Virus record (IMG/VR): IMGVR_UViG_3300014208_000023
Coordinates: 364,321-428,320 of that record
Origin: a virus
Taxonomy: Duplodnaviria > Caudoviricetes
Direction: 5' to 3' (one strand)
DNA: 64,000 bases
A program made the translations under genes and the position numbers. Positions 3 through 7,647 of the stretch are shown piece by piece (position 1 is the first letter of the stretch; each line of letters opens with the position of its first letter). Below the pieces are notes generated by a model. The model was not told where the DNA came from. It did no database searches and saw only the letters and a program-made list of their open reading frames with translations.

Positions 3-1226
3 AGCGGTAATTAGTGTGGATACTTTTTCGCGAACCTTCATAGAAACATCCTTGAAATCAGGATTCTCTATCGTGTCAATTACGAACGGCATCATTTCGT
101 CTGCCGCCTCAACTAGAGTATGTGCCCTAGCTCTCACCAAAGGCATTGCTGCTCGTAGCTTGGCCGAAGTAAAAGCGTCTTCTACCAACCCCTTTTTCTT
201 TAGGAAAGGGAGAAGCATTTTCTCATACTCGTCAGTTGATGTAAGAGCCTCACTTTTAAGATGCTCATACTGCACTGAAGTGAATTTCTTCATGTCGAAT
301 TTGCCATCGTTCTTGCCGCAATCTTCAATTGCGAAAAGATCAATCATCTGGTCAAGAGAAAATATCTCTTGATCTTTATGAGACCATCCAAATCGAACAA
401 GGTAATTAAGAATTGCGTGTGGAGTAAATCCCATCTCTCTAAACTCTGCGACCGACACTGAGCCATCTCGCTTTGAGAGTTTTCCACCGGCCGCGTTCAG
501 AAGCATTGGGAGGTGACAATATATCGGACGCTCTAGTTTTAGAGCATCAGCAATCATTACCTGTTGCGGAGTATTTTTAAGATGATCTGACCCGCGGATA
601 ACGTGAGTAATATTGTCGATGACAAGATCATCAATGCAATTGGCAAAATTGAATAGCGGGATTTCGCTGTGCCGGAGGATAACAAAATCATAGTTCTCCT
701 TATTTGGAACGCTTCTTTTACCAAAAGCAACGTCCTCGTAATCGGTGGTTCCTTCGGTTGGAGCCTTGAATCGGATTACGAATGGCTTATCTAGGCGCTC
801 TTTAATATCCCTACATGTACCGGGATATTTGAATGGATGCTTTGGATTCTTTGCCATGGCCTCGTCTCTGGCCTTGGTAAGCTCCTCCTCGGTGCAATAA
901 CACCTATAAGCGTCTCCCTGCTCAAGTAGCTGCTCTGCATACTTTTTGTATGTAGGAAGCCGCTCCATTTGCGTATATGCCCCTGCTGGACAATTATCAG
1001 TTCCCCATCCCATTGTAGGAGTGAGTCCAAGCCAGTTTAGCTCTGATAGAATCTTTTCAGCACCCTGATCCACTACTCTTGCGGTATCAGTATCCTCAAT
1101 ACGAAGGACGAAATCAGCGTCATACTTACGAGAGAATAGGTAGTTGAAAAGAAACGTCTTGGCATTTCCTACGTGAAGGGTGCCAGAGGGTGATGGGGCG
1201 CAACGCACTCGGAATTTTTTCGACAT
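3..1226 (-). CDS. gltX: Glutamyl-tRNA synthetase (3' end runs off window)
   Basis: Manual translation from ATG at 1226: MSKKFRVRCAPSPSGTLHVGNAKTFLFNY (HIGH-type motif), LRIEDTD, HLPMLLNAAGGKLSKRDG (KMSKS-type motif), LVRARAHTLVE. Open to position 3, so absent from the ORF track. Confidence 0.95.
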   Translation of the reverse strand, partial: MSKKFRVRCAPSPSGTLHVGNAKTFLFNYLFSRKYDADFVLRIEDTDTARVVDQGAEKILSELNWLGLTPTMGWGTDNCPAGAYTQMERLPTYKKYAEQLLEQGDAYRCYCTEEELTKARDEAMAKNPKHPFKYPGTCRDIKERLDKPFVIRFKAPTEGTTDYEDVAFGKRSVPNKENYDFVILRHSEIPLFNFANCIDDLVIDNITHVIRGSDHLKNTPQQVMIADALKLERPIYCHLPMLLNAAGGKLSKRDGSVSVAEFREMGFTPHAILNYLVRFGWSHKDQEIFSLDQMIDLFAIEDCGKNDGKFDMKKFTSVQYEHLKSEALTSTDEYEKMLLPFLKKKGLVEDAFTSAKLRAAMPLVRARAHTLVEAADEMMPFVIDTIENPDFKDVSMKVREKVSTLITA

Positions 1227-1227
1227 A

Positions 1228-1494
1228 TCAGGCCTCTGCTACTATTGAGGTGGCAGTATCTTTTTTAGCTGGCGTAACTTGCTCTTTGCTCTTAATGAAC
1301 GAACAAATCAAGTCATTATCTGAAGCATTCAACTTCAGGTCAGTAGTTGCTCTAACGATCTTTTTCTCAATCGTGTCAAACATAAATTTTCCGGTAGTAT
1401 CGAAATCAGTTAATGATAACTGAATCAATTCTTTTGTCTTTTGTTTTGCATTCAAAACACAAAGCCCATTGCTTAAAAAGCATCTTGTTGTCAT
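1228..1494 (-). CDS. hypothetical protein
   Basis: 88 aa ORF, stop 1 nt from gltX start; start uncertain. Confidence 0.65.
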   Translation of the reverse strand: MTTRCFLSNGLCVLNAKQKTKELIQLSLTDFDTTGKFMFDTIEKKIVRATTDLKLNASDNDLICSFIKSKEQVTPAKKDTATSIVAEA

Positions 1495-1505
1495 TATTTT
1501 GCCTA

Positions 1506-1832
1506 TTAGTTAAGGTGTTTTGGCTCAATAGTAACTGGTTTAAAGTTACTTCCGGCCCAAACCGAATCATATGAAAAACTGGTTATTATTATGGAATAAT
1601 ACTTGGCATGAATATCGGTTAGGGCTGCCGTCACTTCATCATAGATATCGGTAGATCGAACGTCTAGCCTGTCTAGTTGAAGAGATATGAGCGCCCCATC
1701 ATACTCATCTGAGCGCATCGTAATGGTGCCTTGCCTAGCTGCCGGAGCAACTGAATAGCCACGCATAATTAGCTTATGCACTAGGTCTTTTTCGTATGAC
1801 CCTGTTGAAGTAGTTATATGTAGGTGGAACAT
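1506..1832 (-). CDS. hypothetical protein
   Basis: 108 aa ORF in tightly packed operon. Confidence 0.7.
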   Translation of the reverse strand: MFHLHITTSTGSYEKDLVHKLIMRGYSVAPAARQGTITMRSDEYDGALISLQLDRLDVRSTDIYDEVTAALTDIHAKYYSIIITSFSYDSVWAGSNFKPVTIEPKHLN

Positions 1833-1833
1833 A

Positions 1834-2856
1834 TCAACAATACGTCTGGTATTCTTCGGCTTCAGAATAGTTAGTGGTTTTTGCTTTCTTTAGATCTTCC
1901 AGAATAGCAACATGATTATTAGTTACTGCTTGTCCAGTAGTTCCTTCGGAAGCAACTATAGAAAATCCTTTTCTAGCTGTTTTCAGAAAACGCTTGTAGG
2001 CGGCCATGGGAGAGATTTTGAAGAATAGACAAATTCTTTTGATCTCGACCATCAACTCTTCCTGCTCACAAATGCGATCTGGAATCGTACCATCCTCTGT
2101 TTCAAAATCTGAATAGCCGGTTCTCTTATAAACCTTACCGCTTATTGTGTAGTAGCGCTCAAGGCTATCATAGGTCAGATGAATTTGTAGTCGCTCTGAC
2201 GCCTTGCCATATTGCGAACTAGAGCCGCCGACATATCCTGAGTTATAAGACGTAACGCTAGTCACATCTGAAAACCAGACAATAAATGTGAAGTCAGAGT
2301 AGCGTCTATCTTTGGACGTTCCAGAGAACGCGCTAACGGCTTTTAGCTTGCGAAAATGAAAGTCTTCGGTATCCTTAACTTTAGAGGTCGGAATTGCGTA
2401 TAGGAATTTTCTAACTTCTTCTGGCTCCACTTTAGTAAGCTCCTGCTTAATCGGTTCATGCTTAATTGGCTGATACCCAGAACTTGAATTTTTCACTACC
2501 GAATCTGCAACACGAACATTGGCTTCTTCTATGTGCCTGTTCTCAATGTGCATTCCGATATGGCGTGTCAAATAGTCCTGCCTCACGTCATGTGGGCAGA
2601 AATTACATTTGACAAATAGGGCCTTTGCGTCAGGAGAGTTCATTGTTTTATTTACCGTATCATTGTTTGATTCTGATAACTTTATTCGTTCTAGTAGGGC
2701 TAATGGATCCGTAATTTGGCTGGAGGCAATCTTGTATAGATGCTCCTCGTCTCTCCATGCTTTTGGCATGGAATCAGTTCCGGCTAGCCACGTATTGGAT
2801 CTATGGCTGCAATGAAAATATGACGAACATATAGGACAGCGGTTTTTTGTAATCAT
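1834..2856 (-). CDS. Zn-finger-containing hypothetical protein
   Basis: 340 aa; CPICSSYFHCSH and C2H2-like CNFC-x11-HIGMH. Confidence 0.75.
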   Translation of the reverse strand: MITKNRCPICSSYFHCSHRSNTWLAGTDSMPKAWRDEEHLYKIASSQITDPLALLERIKLSESNNDTVNKTMNSPDAKALFVKCNFCPHDVRQDYLTRHIGMHIENRHIEEANVRVADSVVKNSSSGYQPIKHEPIKQELTKVEPEEVRKFLYAIPTSKVKDTEDFHFRKLKAVSAFSGTSKDRRYSDFTFIVWFSDVTSVTSYNSGYVGGSSSQYGKASERLQIHLTYDSLERYYTISGKVYKRTGYSDFETEDGTIPDRICEQEELMVEIKRICLFFKISPMAAYKRFLKTARKGFSIVASEGTTGQAVTNNHVAILEDLKKAKTTNYSEAEEYQTYC

Positions 2857-2895
2857 ATTCTTATATGCACCATTCGTGACATCAACGGCAGAGAA

Positions 2896-6762: not shown

Positions 6763-6792
6763 TTTTTTTCTTTTCTTTCATTTTAGTAGCGT

Positions 6793-6866
6793 TAGTGATC
6801 CTCCCAGGGAATGAGCCTGGATTACCTTACCGAAATAAAGTGTTCTATTCATTAAACTAGAGGACC
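6793..6866 (-). ncRNA. tRNA-Glu-like UUCG RNA, copy 5
   Basis: GGTCCTC/GAGGATC acceptor (compensatory U3-A70), CTTTAT TTCG GTAAGG. Confidence 0.85.
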
Positions 6867-7171
6867 TAAAGATTTATTTCCTCAATGATGGTGAGGTTGT
6901 TATTTTCTTTTTTATAGAGAAGAAGGCTGTTAGCATTGATTTTTTCATTAAGAAAAAGAAGCTTAATTTTCTCACATGTAAGCTTGAATTTCAAAATTAA
7001 GAAATATTCATTTGCAAGAATGTTAATGTTATTTTCTTGCAACAGTCTTTCTAAGTCAAGATTATTGTTTTGGCGAGTGTCAGTTGTTAGGGAAGATTTG
7101 TAACGACTTATAAAGTCGCGCGCGGCTTCTAACGTGTATTCTCCAGTGAAAAATGGTCTATATAAAATCAT
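6866..7171 (-). CDS. hypothetical protein between copies 5 and 6
   Basis: 101 aa, AT-rich; shares TLEAAxx(F/W)I motif with 7254-7574. Confidence 0.7.
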   Translation of the reverse strand: MILYRPFFTGEYTLEAARDFISRYKSSLTTDTRQNNNLDLERLLQENNINILANEYFLILKFKLTCEKIKLLFLNEKINANSLLLYKKENNNLTIIEEINL

Positions 7172-7176
7172 GTTTT

Positions 7177-7249
7177 TAGTGACCCGTCCAGGGATCGAAT
7201 CTGGATTACCTTACCGAAGTAAAGTGTTCTGGCATTAAACTAACGGGCC
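7177..7249 (-). ncRNA. tRNA-Glu-like UUCG RNA, copy 6
   Basis: GGCCCGT TA GTTT AATGCCA GAAC A CTTTAC TTCG GTAAGG TAAT CCAGA TTCGATC CCTGG ACGGGTC A CTA. Confidence 0.85.
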
Positions 7250-7253
7250 GTAA

Positions 7254-7574
7254 TTATATCTTAAATTCTTTTACTATTTCAACTTCTAGGCCACCAAAAG
7301 GAATGCGTTTGGTACGGACGATATATATCGTATCTCCCGTAATCGATTGTGCGCGGGCCAGTCTATCTAAAGCGTCACACTTTGCCGTAGCTCTAACTAT
7401 GAAGCCATAGCCAAGTGCTCCTATAGATTTAGTTGAATTAATGATTTCAGTCATAGAGGTCGCGTTGGATAACGCTGGCGCTATATTAAAATAGCCCCTA
7501 TTCTTCCTTATCCAAGATTCGGCGGCTTCTAGCGTTTTTAGTGACGATAAACTATAACTGGCATATATAAACAT
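7254..7574 (-). CDS. hypothetical protein between copies 6 and 7
   Basis: 106 aa; ATG directly follows the CCA of copy 7. Confidence 0.7.
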   Translation of the reverse strand: MFIYASYSLSSLKTLEAAESWIRKNRGYFNIAPALSNATSMTEIINSTKSIGALGYGFIVRATAKCDALDRLARAQSITGDTIYIVRTKRIPFGGLEVEIVKEFKI

Positions 7575-7647
7575 TGGTGACCTGTCTAGGGATCGAATCT
7601 AGATTTCCCTACCGAAGTAGAGCGTTTTGGCATTAAACTAACAGGCC
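7575..7647 (-). ncRNA. tRNA-Glu-like UUCG RNA, copy 7 (CCA encoded)
   Basis: CTCTAC TTCG GTAGGG and CTAGA/CCTAG T-stem, both with compensatory changes versus other copies. Confidence 0.85.

Follow-up and report, generated by a model that had tools for sequence, protein, structure and literature searches.

A conserved multi-copy family of predicted RNA genes, apparently derived from tRNA-Glu, in a GluRS-encoding 428-kb groundwater phage and its relatives

The window analyzed here is a stretch of 64,000 nucleotides corresponding to positions 364,321 to 428,320 of IMGVR_UViG_3300014208_000023, the genome of a 428-kb groundwater phage. Eight tRNA-shaped genes resembling tRNA-Glu, 72 nt in length, lie on the minus strand, seven of them in an array at 5562-7647 and one at 22498-22570; a search of the whole 428-kb genome found no further look-alike copies. 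Copy 1 (7576..7647) contains a U13-A22 pair and an encoded CCA, after which the ATG of the next open reading frame (ORF) follows immediately. It is called 'tRNA-??? (tc)' by ARAGORN and scores 41.6 bits with the Rfam tRNA model and 91.8 bits with model R1. Copy 2 (7178..7249), also called by ARAGORN, has the acceptor stem of a Bacillota tRNA-Glu. Just upstream is a sigma-70-like match on the same strand (TTGAAA-18-TATAAT, 11 of 12 positions, 7253..7282) that ends 4 nt before G1; such promoter matches were not enriched over shuffled sequences. G1 of copy 3 (6794..6866) is overlapped by the stop codon of the upstream ORF, and the A73-C-U of copy 4 (6497..6569) is followed directly by the ATG of an ORF. 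Copies 5 (5766..5838; 39.4 bits with Rfam), 6 (5637..5709), and 7 (5562..5634) form a tandem run, in which copy 7 starts 2 nt past the modeled end of copy 6 and 4 nt past its discriminator. Copy 8 (22498..22570) is located away from the array near a tRNA-Gly and matches copy 5 at every position up to C74. Copies 1 and 2, which begin at 7647 and 7249, were numbered 7 and 6, respectively, in the first-pass annotation. Of the eight genes, three include an encoded CCA. Scans with Rfam RF00005 reported three copies at 39-42 bits (gathering threshold of 29 bits), and the other five were listed by neither scan.

The same RNA family was found in a 406-kb IMG/VR phage, in metagenome contigs of 353 and 248 kb, and in three small contigs. 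Together with the 428-kb phage these provided a comparison set of 19 copies from seven sources. The number of copies varies among the relatives (8, 3, at least 3, and at least 2), as do the insertion sites. Two small unrelated ORFs of 101 and 106 aa (6866..7574, minus strand) are interleaved with copies 1-3, and the unit at 7175-7572 is missing from a wastewater strain, from which it was lost by recombination. A 61-aa ORF (6577..6762, minus strand) is located between copies 3 and 4, and its homologue in the 248-kb relative is likewise flanked by copies. A canonical tRNA-Gln(UUG) gene (6110..6183, minus strand) occurs inside the array, and its position is conserved in the 248-kb relative. Eight tightly packed, co-directional orphan genes (1228..5539, minus strand) that are kept in close relatives separate the array from gltX. 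They encode proteins of 87, 553 (MORN-like), 103, 62 (zinc-ribbon-like), 70, 340 (Cys-rich), 108, and 88 aa, for which there was no Pfam, PHROG, or Atlas assignment and no hint of fold or family.

The look-alikes fold as a cloverleaf with acceptor, D, anticodon, and T arms, and all four helices are backed by covariation. The minimum free energy (MFE) structure is the cloverleaf in five of the seven distinct copies; for a sixth (6569) the MFE structure keeps the acceptor, D, and T arms while the anticodon arm pairs otherwise. In the copies of the 428-kb phage, 97% of the cells are paired, compared with 91% in shuffles, and six pairs show double changes. None of 500 shuffles equaled the observed values, and a chance origin of this pairing pattern is excluded. 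For the 19 copies from seven sources the corresponding figures are 96.6% and 74%. Compensatory changes on both sides are found at 16 of the 22 base pairs, a number reached by none of 500 shuffles, and thus the RNA fold is under selection. The base triple 9/12-23 also covaries, from C9 with C12-G23 to A9 with U12-A23.

The anticodon arm departs most clearly from that of a canonical tRNA. In the eight copies of the 428-kb phage it consists of a 6-bp stem and a UUCG tetraloop that does not vary and whose closing pair is C-G or U.G. Across the 19 copies the stem is 6-7 bp and the UUCG-type cap is closed by C-G, U.G, U-A, or G-C; in a divergent relative the stem has been extended to 7 bp with retention of the tetraloop. 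There is no canonical anticodon loop of 7 nt containing U33 and offering a free triplet, and ARAGORN assigns a 2-nt 'anticodon'. Because the arm is capped by the tetraloop, the look-alikes cannot pair with codons. The elbow, which is the part of a tRNA used by ribosome contacts and by RNase P, is also non-canonical. The D loop has one G in place of G18G19, position 54 is C in 5/8 copies of this phage, position 58 is U in 4/8 (otherwise A), and the 53:61 pair is A.C in 5/8. Among the 19 copies the T loop and elbow are variable, while the D helix, the variable loop, and the tetraloop letters are the most conserved. Features of the tRNA-like part of tmRNA were not found: the 3-70 pair is C-G, U-A, or G-C rather than G3.U70, and D and anticodon arms are present. 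Two further tRNA-shaped RNAs with remodeled anticodon regions are encoded in the same genome without a matching synthetase, and these hint at a more general mimic strategy.

The invariant positions (19 of 19 copies) comprise G1, G2, U71, C72, and C74; U8, G10, U11, U13, A14, A15, A21, and A24; A46 and U48; and U, U, and G in the loop. Approximately 20 unpaired or wobble positions are strictly kept across phages whose GluRS enzymes are just 54-58% identical. The determinants of E. coli GluRS include U11-A24, U13-G22:A46, the absence of nucleotide 47, and G1-C72, and the strong ones are U34, U35, C36, and A37 in an open 7-nt anticodon loop (PMC9976931). Every determinant of that set outside the anticodon loop is present in the look-alikes. 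[quoted passage not shown] The acceptor end is also retained (G1-C72 in 19/19, G2.U71, R73, and C74). The invariant G2.U71 wobble occurs as well in Bacillota tRNA-Glu and in the tRNA-Glu of the phage itself, whereas E. coli has U-A there. These observations bear out the first-pass annotation, which had described G1-C72, U11-A24, and the 4-nt variable loop with A46 and without nucleotide 47 (all in 8/8 copies of this phage, where the variable loop reads N-A-A-U) together with U13.G22 (7/8, with U13-A22 in the copy at 7647, as it had noted). It had also placed the triplet UUC in the loop. The letters are there in 18 of the 19 copies, but the loop is not open: UUC is part of a UUCG tetraloop, on a 6-bp stem in this phage, and is followed by G rather than A. 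The strongest known GluRS determinants (U34, U35, C36, and A37) are thus structurally compromised in the predicted fold of the look-alikes.

A derivation of the look-alikes from tRNA-Glu is supported by sequence comparison. When covariance model R2 of the family was applied to 83 natural tRNAs, the tRNA-Glu of two bacteria scored 46, 46, 42, and 35 bits; the best of the others were Lys (35.7 bits), Gly (34 bits), Asp (34 bits), and Arg(UCG) (32 bits). When the copies of the 406-kb relative were compared with 99 tRNAs, the five closest were all tRNA-Glu, and the most divergent copies have a canonical tRNA-Glu D-arm. The choice that had been posed between tRNA-Glu and tRNA-Arg(UCG) or tRNA-Gly therefore falls to tRNA-Glu as the nearest natural relative. 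The acceptor of copy 2, GGCCCGT/ACGGGTC with A73, is identical to that of tRNA-Glu(CUC) of Faecalispora (Bacillota), so that the acceptor described in the first-pass annotation as 'Bacillus-type' holds for Bacillota. The 428-kb genome also has a normal tRNA-Glu(UUC) gene, located outside the window. The loop YUUUCGN occurs in many phage tRNA-Glu genes, and we infer that the family may have arisen when a tRNA-Glu(UUC) loop carrying G37, a type common in those genes, lost a single U.

The gltX gene starts at window position 1226 on the strand of the array, 4.3 kb downstream of the last array copy. The first 408 of its 483 codons are in the window (3..1226, minus strand) and it ends at genome position 364095. 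The GluRS reported from the first reading of the locus, complete-looking and about 4.3 kb downstream, is thus real: the product is a full-length protein of 483 aa (Pfam tRNA-synt_1c PF00749, E 1e-84), and its best relatives of solved structure are bacterial GluRS (E 1e-81). Comparison with these structures gave no sign of an altered anticodon-binding domain in this full-length, ordinary-looking enzyme. GluRS was the sole match among the five Pfam synthetase families searched. Within the clade, copies and gltX occur together in both genomes that are near-complete and in three contigs that are partial. They belong to one co-directional block in close relatives and lie within 10-16 kb of each other where GluRS identity is 54-58%. 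A canonical tRNA-Glu is absent from the 406-kb relative, which carries gltX and three copies. The co-occurrence of the RNA and gltX, which the first-pass annotation had proposed to examine, is seen in these five sources and not in a related 157-kb fragment that has gltX and zero copies. Single tetraloop-type tRNA-Glu-like genes were also detected in unrelated viral contigs, all incomplete, in which gltX was not found.

Phage T4 species 1 and 2 are small stable RNAs that are encoded in a tRNA gene cluster, are co-processed with tRNAs, and have no known function. The features that, to our knowledge, set the look-alikes apart from these T4 RNAs are their derivation from tRNA-Glu, the tetraloop on the anticodon arm, and their presence in multiple copies. 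With the canonical tRNA-Glu(UUC) of bacteria and phages the look-alikes share G1-C72, G2.U71, A73, U11-A24, U13.G22, A46, a variable loop of 4 nt, and the triplet UUC with a G after it, which is also found in those phage tRNA-Glu genes that have G37. The canonical tRNA has a 7-nt loop with a free U33 and anticodon, where the look-alikes have 4 nt (6 with the closing pair); the look-alikes also have a single D-loop G and depart from the usual U/A at positions 54/58. Certain phage tRNAs carry mutations in the anticodon loop by which they evade defenses directed at tRNAs (PMC10264068). They are similarly phage-encoded and loop-altered in an arms-race setting, but they still decode, which the look-alikes cannot; the terms 'tRNA-like', 'pseudo', 'decoy', and 'tetraloop' do not occur in the main text of that report. 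The tRNA-like domain of the bacterial Y RNA YrlA (PMC4201824), mascRNA, and tRNA-Other of Bacillus cereus (PMC3399842) are also tRNA-shaped and non-decoding and, like the look-alikes, are probably all matured by tRNA enzymes. Of these, YrlA is larger and has a stem that binds Ro60, mascRNA comes from eukaryotes, and tRNA-Other is encoded by one gene on the chromosome; none is known to be a multi-copy phage family with the tRNA-Glu identity set beside GluRS. No comparable phage RNA family was found in the literature searched. By the covariation and covariance-model analyses above, the 428-kb phage and its relatives are shown to carry a conserved multi-copy family of putative tRNA-Glu-derived RNA genes.

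Our tentative first choice for a function, possible rather than probable, is that the look-alikes may be a tRNA-Glu surrogate recognized by GluRS and excluded from the ribosome. Counting against this are the position of the strong E. coli GluRS determinants in the loop, the ordinary-looking phage GluRS, the gltX fragment without a copy, the similar RNAs in incomplete contigs where gltX was not found, the two other remodeled RNAs of this genome without a matching synthetase, and the lack of any fold or family hint for the neighboring orphan proteins. RNA runs containing this sequence were looked for, and none was found. With the tetraloop closed, charging is probably orders of magnitude lower. 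Domain searches of the whole 428-kb genome for a user of Glu-tRNA, as proposed in the first-pass annotation, found no LanB, HemA, FemAB, or MprF domains, which also counts against a surrogate. The overall interpretation put forward there is partly supported.

The alternative raised in the first-pass annotation, that the RNAs act as decoys or sequester a protein, comes close to GluRS charging in likelihood and is itself somewhat unlikely. As a decoy or sponge, a high-dosage imitation of tRNA-Glu, or of tRNA in general, would titrate some host protein with affinity for the tRNA body or for the acceptor end; host GluRS is one candidate, and a defense nuclease or toxin directed at tRNAs is another. 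Lacking an anticodon loop, the RNAs would be uncut by anticodon-loop nucleases and harmless to translation. The high and variable copy number fits such a stoichiometric role, and the unit lost in the wastewater strain is in keeping with it. The anti-phage tRNases Schlafen, PARIS, and retron PtuAB cut the tRNA anticodon loop (PMC13056530), exactly the part that has been removed here, and tRNA gene amplification is documented as an escape from a tRNA-cleaving defense (PMC13096335). The two other remodeled RNAs of this genome and the single RNAs in contigs without an observed gltX point in the same direction. However, titration of catalytic nucleases is difficult, the tetraloop would be a poor ligand for any nuclease that recognizes the anticodon loop, and a bacterial defense aimed at tRNA-Glu was not found in the literature searched. 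A generic decoy would also need no strict tRNA-Glu D helix, G2.U71 wobble, or association with gltX.

It is quite improbable that the tRNA shape is processing punctuation, by analogy with mitochondrial tRNA punctuation and MALAT1/mascRNA, in which RNase P and RNase Z would split a polycistronic transcript into separate mRNAs, differently stable or leaderless, with the RNA as a by-product. The near-zero spacers to ORFs at copies 1, 3, and 4, the copy-ORF-copy layout preserved in the 248-kb relative, and the rarity of Shine-Dalgarno motifs in the 428-kb genome are consistent with punctuation. Yet some copies follow one another in tandem without an intervening ORF (copies 5 to 7 in this phage, three in the 406-kb relative, and a further two in L244), and conservation is highest in the features least needed by RNase P (D helix, variable loop, and tetraloop letters), in contrast to the variable T loop and elbow. 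The ordinary tRNA genes of the phage are likewise scattered among ORFs, so the layout of the copies needs no special explanation. Decaying pseudogenes or a selfish repeat, with recombination multiplying a tRNA-Glu gene that had lost 1 nt and with no function at the RNA level, is a very improbable and already disfavored reading. It would account for an origin by a single easy mutation from the common YUUUCGN loop, for copies that move or convert (copy 8 matches copy 5 and insertion sites vary), and for units lost by recombination. It is opposed by the compensatory changes in all four helices, by the strictly kept unpaired and wobble positions at 54-58% GluRS identity, and by the divergent relative whose stem grew while its tetraloop was retained.

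For the surrogate reading, the look-alikes would be transcribed along with neighboring genes and excised by RNase P and 3' processing, as for the ordinary tRNAs of the phage. The CCA would be completed by the CCA-adding-type enzyme that the phage encodes. The GluRS of the phage, and possibly that of the host, would then recognize the D helix and acceptor end. This would yield a pool of surrogates for tRNA-Glu, probably in glutamylated form, which would be unusable by the ribosome and safe from cleavage by anticodon-loop nucleases. Such a pool may serve an off-ribosome use of Glu-tRNA or modulate GluRS. More specifically, and unlikely on present evidence, a private Glu-tRNA pool, charged by the phage GluRS and closed to the ribosome, might be used by a tRNA-dependent glutamyl transferase of a new family encoded among the conserved orphan genes that separate the array from gltX. 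If so, this transferase would modify a protein, cell-envelope, or nucleic-acid target with Glu from the surrogates, which would themselves be immune to anticodon-loop nucleases.

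The 428,320-bp virus record originates from groundwater metagenomes and carries direct terminal repeats; nearly all of the genes in the window, which is its final 64 kb, are on the minus strand. Two genes in the window are called by ARAGORN as 'tRNA-???' with the two-letter anticodon 'tc'. Reading of the strand together with a genome scan identified a 72-nt element in eight copies. Seven of these are located at 5562–7647 (−) and the eighth, at 22498–22570 (−), matches the 5838 copy exactly as far as C74. No further copies were detected elsewhere in the genome by the scan, and the covariance model agrees. 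The eight copies align without difficulty at a mean column identity of 89% and fold as cloverleaves. The anticodon arm consists of a 6-bp stem with a C-G or U.G closing pair and a UUCG cap, and thus differs from the usual 5-bp stem and 7-nt loop. A reading in which a 6-nt loop decodes doublets or shifts the frame was considered and dropped, since a conserved closing pair seals the loop as a stable tetraloop. The G2.U71 wobble is invariant in these copies and A73-C74 is present. The elbow is noncanonical: the D loop has one G, positions 54 and 58 are often C and U, respectively, and the 53:61 pair is A.C in five copies. The features listed in the first-pass annotation were recovered, namely G1-C72, U11-A24, U13.G22 (U13-A22 in the copy at 7647), a 4-nt variable loop (N-A-A-U), and the triplet UUC within the loop.

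Relatives of the RNA family were sought via homologues of the phage glutamyl-tRNA synthetase (GluRS). The closest homologues (85–47% identity) come from metagenomic contigs that are very large (up to 430 kb), and the nearest named bacterial proteins are approximately 46–48% identical. A covariance model built on the eight copies was run on the sequence of the relatives. Matches were obtained for three copies in a syntenic 248-kb contig, one copy and one cut copy in a 27-kb contig, one copy at the border of the retrieved part of a 353-kb contig (GluRS 54% identical), and three tandem copies approximately 15.6 kb upstream of gltX in a 406-kb IMG/VR record (GluRS 58% identical). Of 58 stretches matched in a metagenome scan, only those of two small syntenic contigs (three copies) were members of the family. 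Exact and near-exact pattern scans of viral contigs found no close copies outside the clade, and the sole match of the array by blastn against 50,697 phage records was the tRNA-Gln gene. The matches to a looser D-arm/TTCG pattern were mostly ordinary tRNA-Arg(UCG) genes and chance, and those to a tRNA-Glu-type pattern were mostly ordinary phage tRNA-Glu genes with G37. The match in contigs L152/L177 was rejected as part of a permuted tmRNA. In L177, an unrelated 23.8-kb viral contig, ARAGORN identifies this two-piece tmRNA at 1263–1626 with the tag VNDNQDLSYAVAA, and its tRNA-like part matched the tRNA-Glu-type search pattern.

Within the phage genome, both partners have changed in six pairs of the element and 97% of the cells pair; 0 of 500 shuffles reach these values. 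Across 19 copies from 7 sources, compensatory changes occur in 16 of the 22 pairs and 96.6% of the cells are paired, versus 74% in shuffles. Strictly invariant in the 19 copies are G1, G2, U8, G10, U11, U13, A14, A15, A21, A24, A46, U48, U55, C60, U71, C72, C74, and the U, U, and G of the loop, whose C occurs in 18 of 19. The G.U pairs are compatible with a minus-strand transcript only. In the 406-kb relative, the arm has a 7-bp stem with a G-C or C-G closing pair and a UUCG cap (UUAG in one copy). Because this relative lengthens the stem and retains the cap, the closed, capped arm is itself taken to be the selected state. On this comparative evidence the elements are judged to be a functional RNA family and not dying pseudogenes.

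The ancestry of the family was examined with 99 natural tRNAs that were not chosen for likeness. The set comprised every tRNA detected in two bacteria, a Bdellovibrionales MAG and Faecalispora, together with the tRNAs of the phage and its relative. For the phage's own copies, simple identity ranking is ambiguous (Asp 13.5, Glu 13.2, and Gly 12.9 of 20). The copies in the 406-kb relative have only tRNA-Glu among their five nearest of the 99 tRNAs, with a mean of 14.2 of the 20 core and acceptor positions versus 9.3 for the next isotype, and their D-arm is that of a classic tRNA-Glu (UC-GUCU...GGAC-A). At positions 9, 12, and 23, C9 with C12-G23 has given way to A9 with U12-A23, a joint change that amounts to base-triple covariation. 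The covariance model of the whole family gave scores of 46, 46, 42, and 35 bits for four bacterial tRNA-Glu genes; the best non-Glu tRNAs were Lys (35.7 bits), Gly (34 bits), Asp (34 bits), and Arg(UCG) (32 bits). tRNA-Glu ancestry was decided by this test and by the divergent copies. The relation to tRNA-Glu proposed in the first-pass annotation is upheld, since tRNA-Glu and neither tRNA-Arg(UCG) nor tRNA-Gly ranks at the top, and the copy at 7249 shares its whole acceptor with Faecalispora tRNA-Glu(CUC).

In a pattern scan, G37 and the loop YUUUCGN proved to be common among tRNA-Glu(UUC) genes of phages. Loss of one U from this loop would give N-UUCG-N, which would account for tRNA-Glu being the source of the cap. 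Single tetraloop-type tRNA-Glu-like genes were also found in unrelated viral contigs (L204, L202/L220, and L021/L025). Their origins are apparently independent, and the ease of losing one U would account for their sporadic occurrence.

The full-length GluRS gene (483 aa; PF00749, E 1e-84) starts at 1226 on the same strand as the copies, and a search of the genome for five synthetase Pfam families gave no other match. The array, a tRNA-Gln gene, eight orphan genes, and gltX all point the same way in close relatives and are tightly packed as a single block. The 406-kb relative carries gltX and three copies, and its ordinary tRNAs are tRNA-Ile and tRNA-Lys only. GluRS is not known to contact the tRNA elbow, and the elbow of the family is free to vary. 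The strong determinants of E. coli GluRS are U34, U35, C36, and A37; the enzyme further reads U11-A24, U13-G22:A46, and the absence of nucleotide 47, whereas G1-C72 and the 2-71 pair are weak and N73 is not read (PMC9976931). The family retains all of these determinants outside the loop, and the discriminator is variable (A in 16 copies, G in 3). The link to GluRS is weakened by the tetraloop, which compromises the strongest determinants, and by the ordinary appearance of the phage GluRS. It is also weakened by one relative's 157-kb fragment, 32% complete, which has gltX and in which no copy was found, and by the contigs with sporadic look-alikes, all incomplete, in which gltX was not found. 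Only three records of the clade are available in IMG/VR, so the co-occurrence of copies and gltX is based on very few independent genomes and is suggestive.

For the partner genes suggested in the first-pass annotation, none of the LanB, HemA, FemAB, and MprF domains was found in the whole genome. Searches of the orphan neighbor proteins against Pfam, PHROGs, and the ESM Atlas gave nothing usable. The aminotransferase that distant relatives encode there was rejected as an identity for the 340-aa protein upstream of gltX. Four distant-relative contigs, including L010 and L011, encode a PLP aminotransferase (Aminotran_1_2/Alliinase_C, ~335 aa) zero to two genes upstream of gltX, where the window has an unrelated Cys-rich orphan. 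Two ORFs between copies 1–3 were rejected as paralogues on comparison. A gene for a 798-aa ClpB/Clp-type AAA+ chaperone is located upstream of the array at 10256–12652 (−), a position conserved in the 248-kb relative. At 6102–6179, two wastewater/sludge runs have 73 other letters in place of the tRNA-Gln gene, between flanks that are 95–99% identical, apparently an exchange of tRNA genes. No convincing ORF occupies the approximately 310 nt at 6184–6496 (−) that separate copy 4 from tRNA-Gln. In the 248-kb relative, the initial ~160 nt of this segment are conserved in part, with indel lengths not divisible by three, and the segment may be a terminator region or another noncoding RNA. At 7648–7757 (−), in the spacer that precedes copy 1, a GGTTCGATTCC-like T-arm motif may be left over from the 3′ half of a tRNA; it was not detected by Rfam or ARAGORN.

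Other unusual RNAs and signals are present in the genome. A 100-nt tRNA-shaped RNA (L292) at genome positions 40620–40719 (−), outside the window, has a good acceptor stem and T arm and an anticodon arm of ~45 nt. It scores 28.9 bits with the Rfam tRNA model, just below threshold, and has no BLAST match in the 406-kb relative. L293, at approximately 251165–251250 (−) and also outside the window, follows immediately on a strong terminator hairpin. Its acceptor stem and T arm resemble those of a tRNA, with two unrelated hairpins in place of the usual middle part; no BLAST match was found in the relatives. In the window, tRNA-Asn(GUU) at 40026–40112 (−) has a 17-nt variable arm, unusual for the isotype, and tRNA-Tyr(GUA) is called twice, at 41718–41801 and 43683–43762, the second being 80 nt. 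Shine-Dalgarno motifs are rare, with AGGA within 20 nt upstream of the starts in 23% of 302 long ORFs of the whole genome. A GATATAT(A)-type motif is often ≤20 nt from the ATG of these ORFs and may be a promoter very near the starts, with leaders short or absent.

Encoded CCA is missing from five of the eight copies, with CTA or CTG in the DNA of some, and likewise from most ordinary phage tRNA genes. Since the phage also encodes a CCA-adding-type enzyme, tRNA-like maturation of the copies is plausible. No RNA run was found to contain the stretch. The reading ranked first, a tentative one, is that the copies are recognized by GluRS, probably glutamylated, and excluded from the ribosome as a surrogate of tRNA-Glu. 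Ranked second, and considered only somewhat less likely, is that the copies act at high dosage as decoys for some protein with affinity for the tRNA body or the acceptor end. A decoy would fit the variable copy number, the fact that the part removed is the target cut by known anti-phage tRNases, and the two additional remodeled tRNA-shaped RNAs in the genome. The variation in copy number includes a strain in run X3 that lacks exactly one unit (7175–7572, copy 2 and a 106-aa ORF), a loss consistent with recombination between neighboring copies.

Punctuation of mRNAs by RNase P/Z, ranked third, would explain why ORFs directly adjoin copies, but pure tandem arrays exist and the conservation pattern also speaks against it, so this role is considered unlikely. 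Selfish or decaying repeats are ranked fourth and appear highly improbable. The remainder is left to some explanation outside these four.

Non-decoding tRNA-shaped RNAs are already known, and the family belongs to them; it differs in being viral, multi-copy, of one isotype, and paired with a matching synthetase. In full-text literature, no description was found of tetraloop-capped or anticodon-less phage tRNA-like families, and such RNAs are not mentioned in the principal study of how anticodon loops vary in phage tRNAs (PMC10264068). No report in the literature searched combines a conserved multi-copy viral family, a sealed anticodon loop on a body that retains the entire recognition surface for one amino acid's synthetase, and an adjoining matching synthetase.

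The family illustrates a simple mutational route by which UUC with G37 can become a UUCG cap when a single U is lost. Whether charged or decoy, it is directly testable with 72-nt transcripts and one recombinant enzyme. If the copies act as decoys, they would represent an RNA-level counter-defense against tRNA-directed immunity, currently a very active field. If they are charged, they would constitute the first viral aminoacyl-tRNA pool kept for off-ribosome use and would provide a function for one of the synthetase genes whose presence in huge phages is puzzling.
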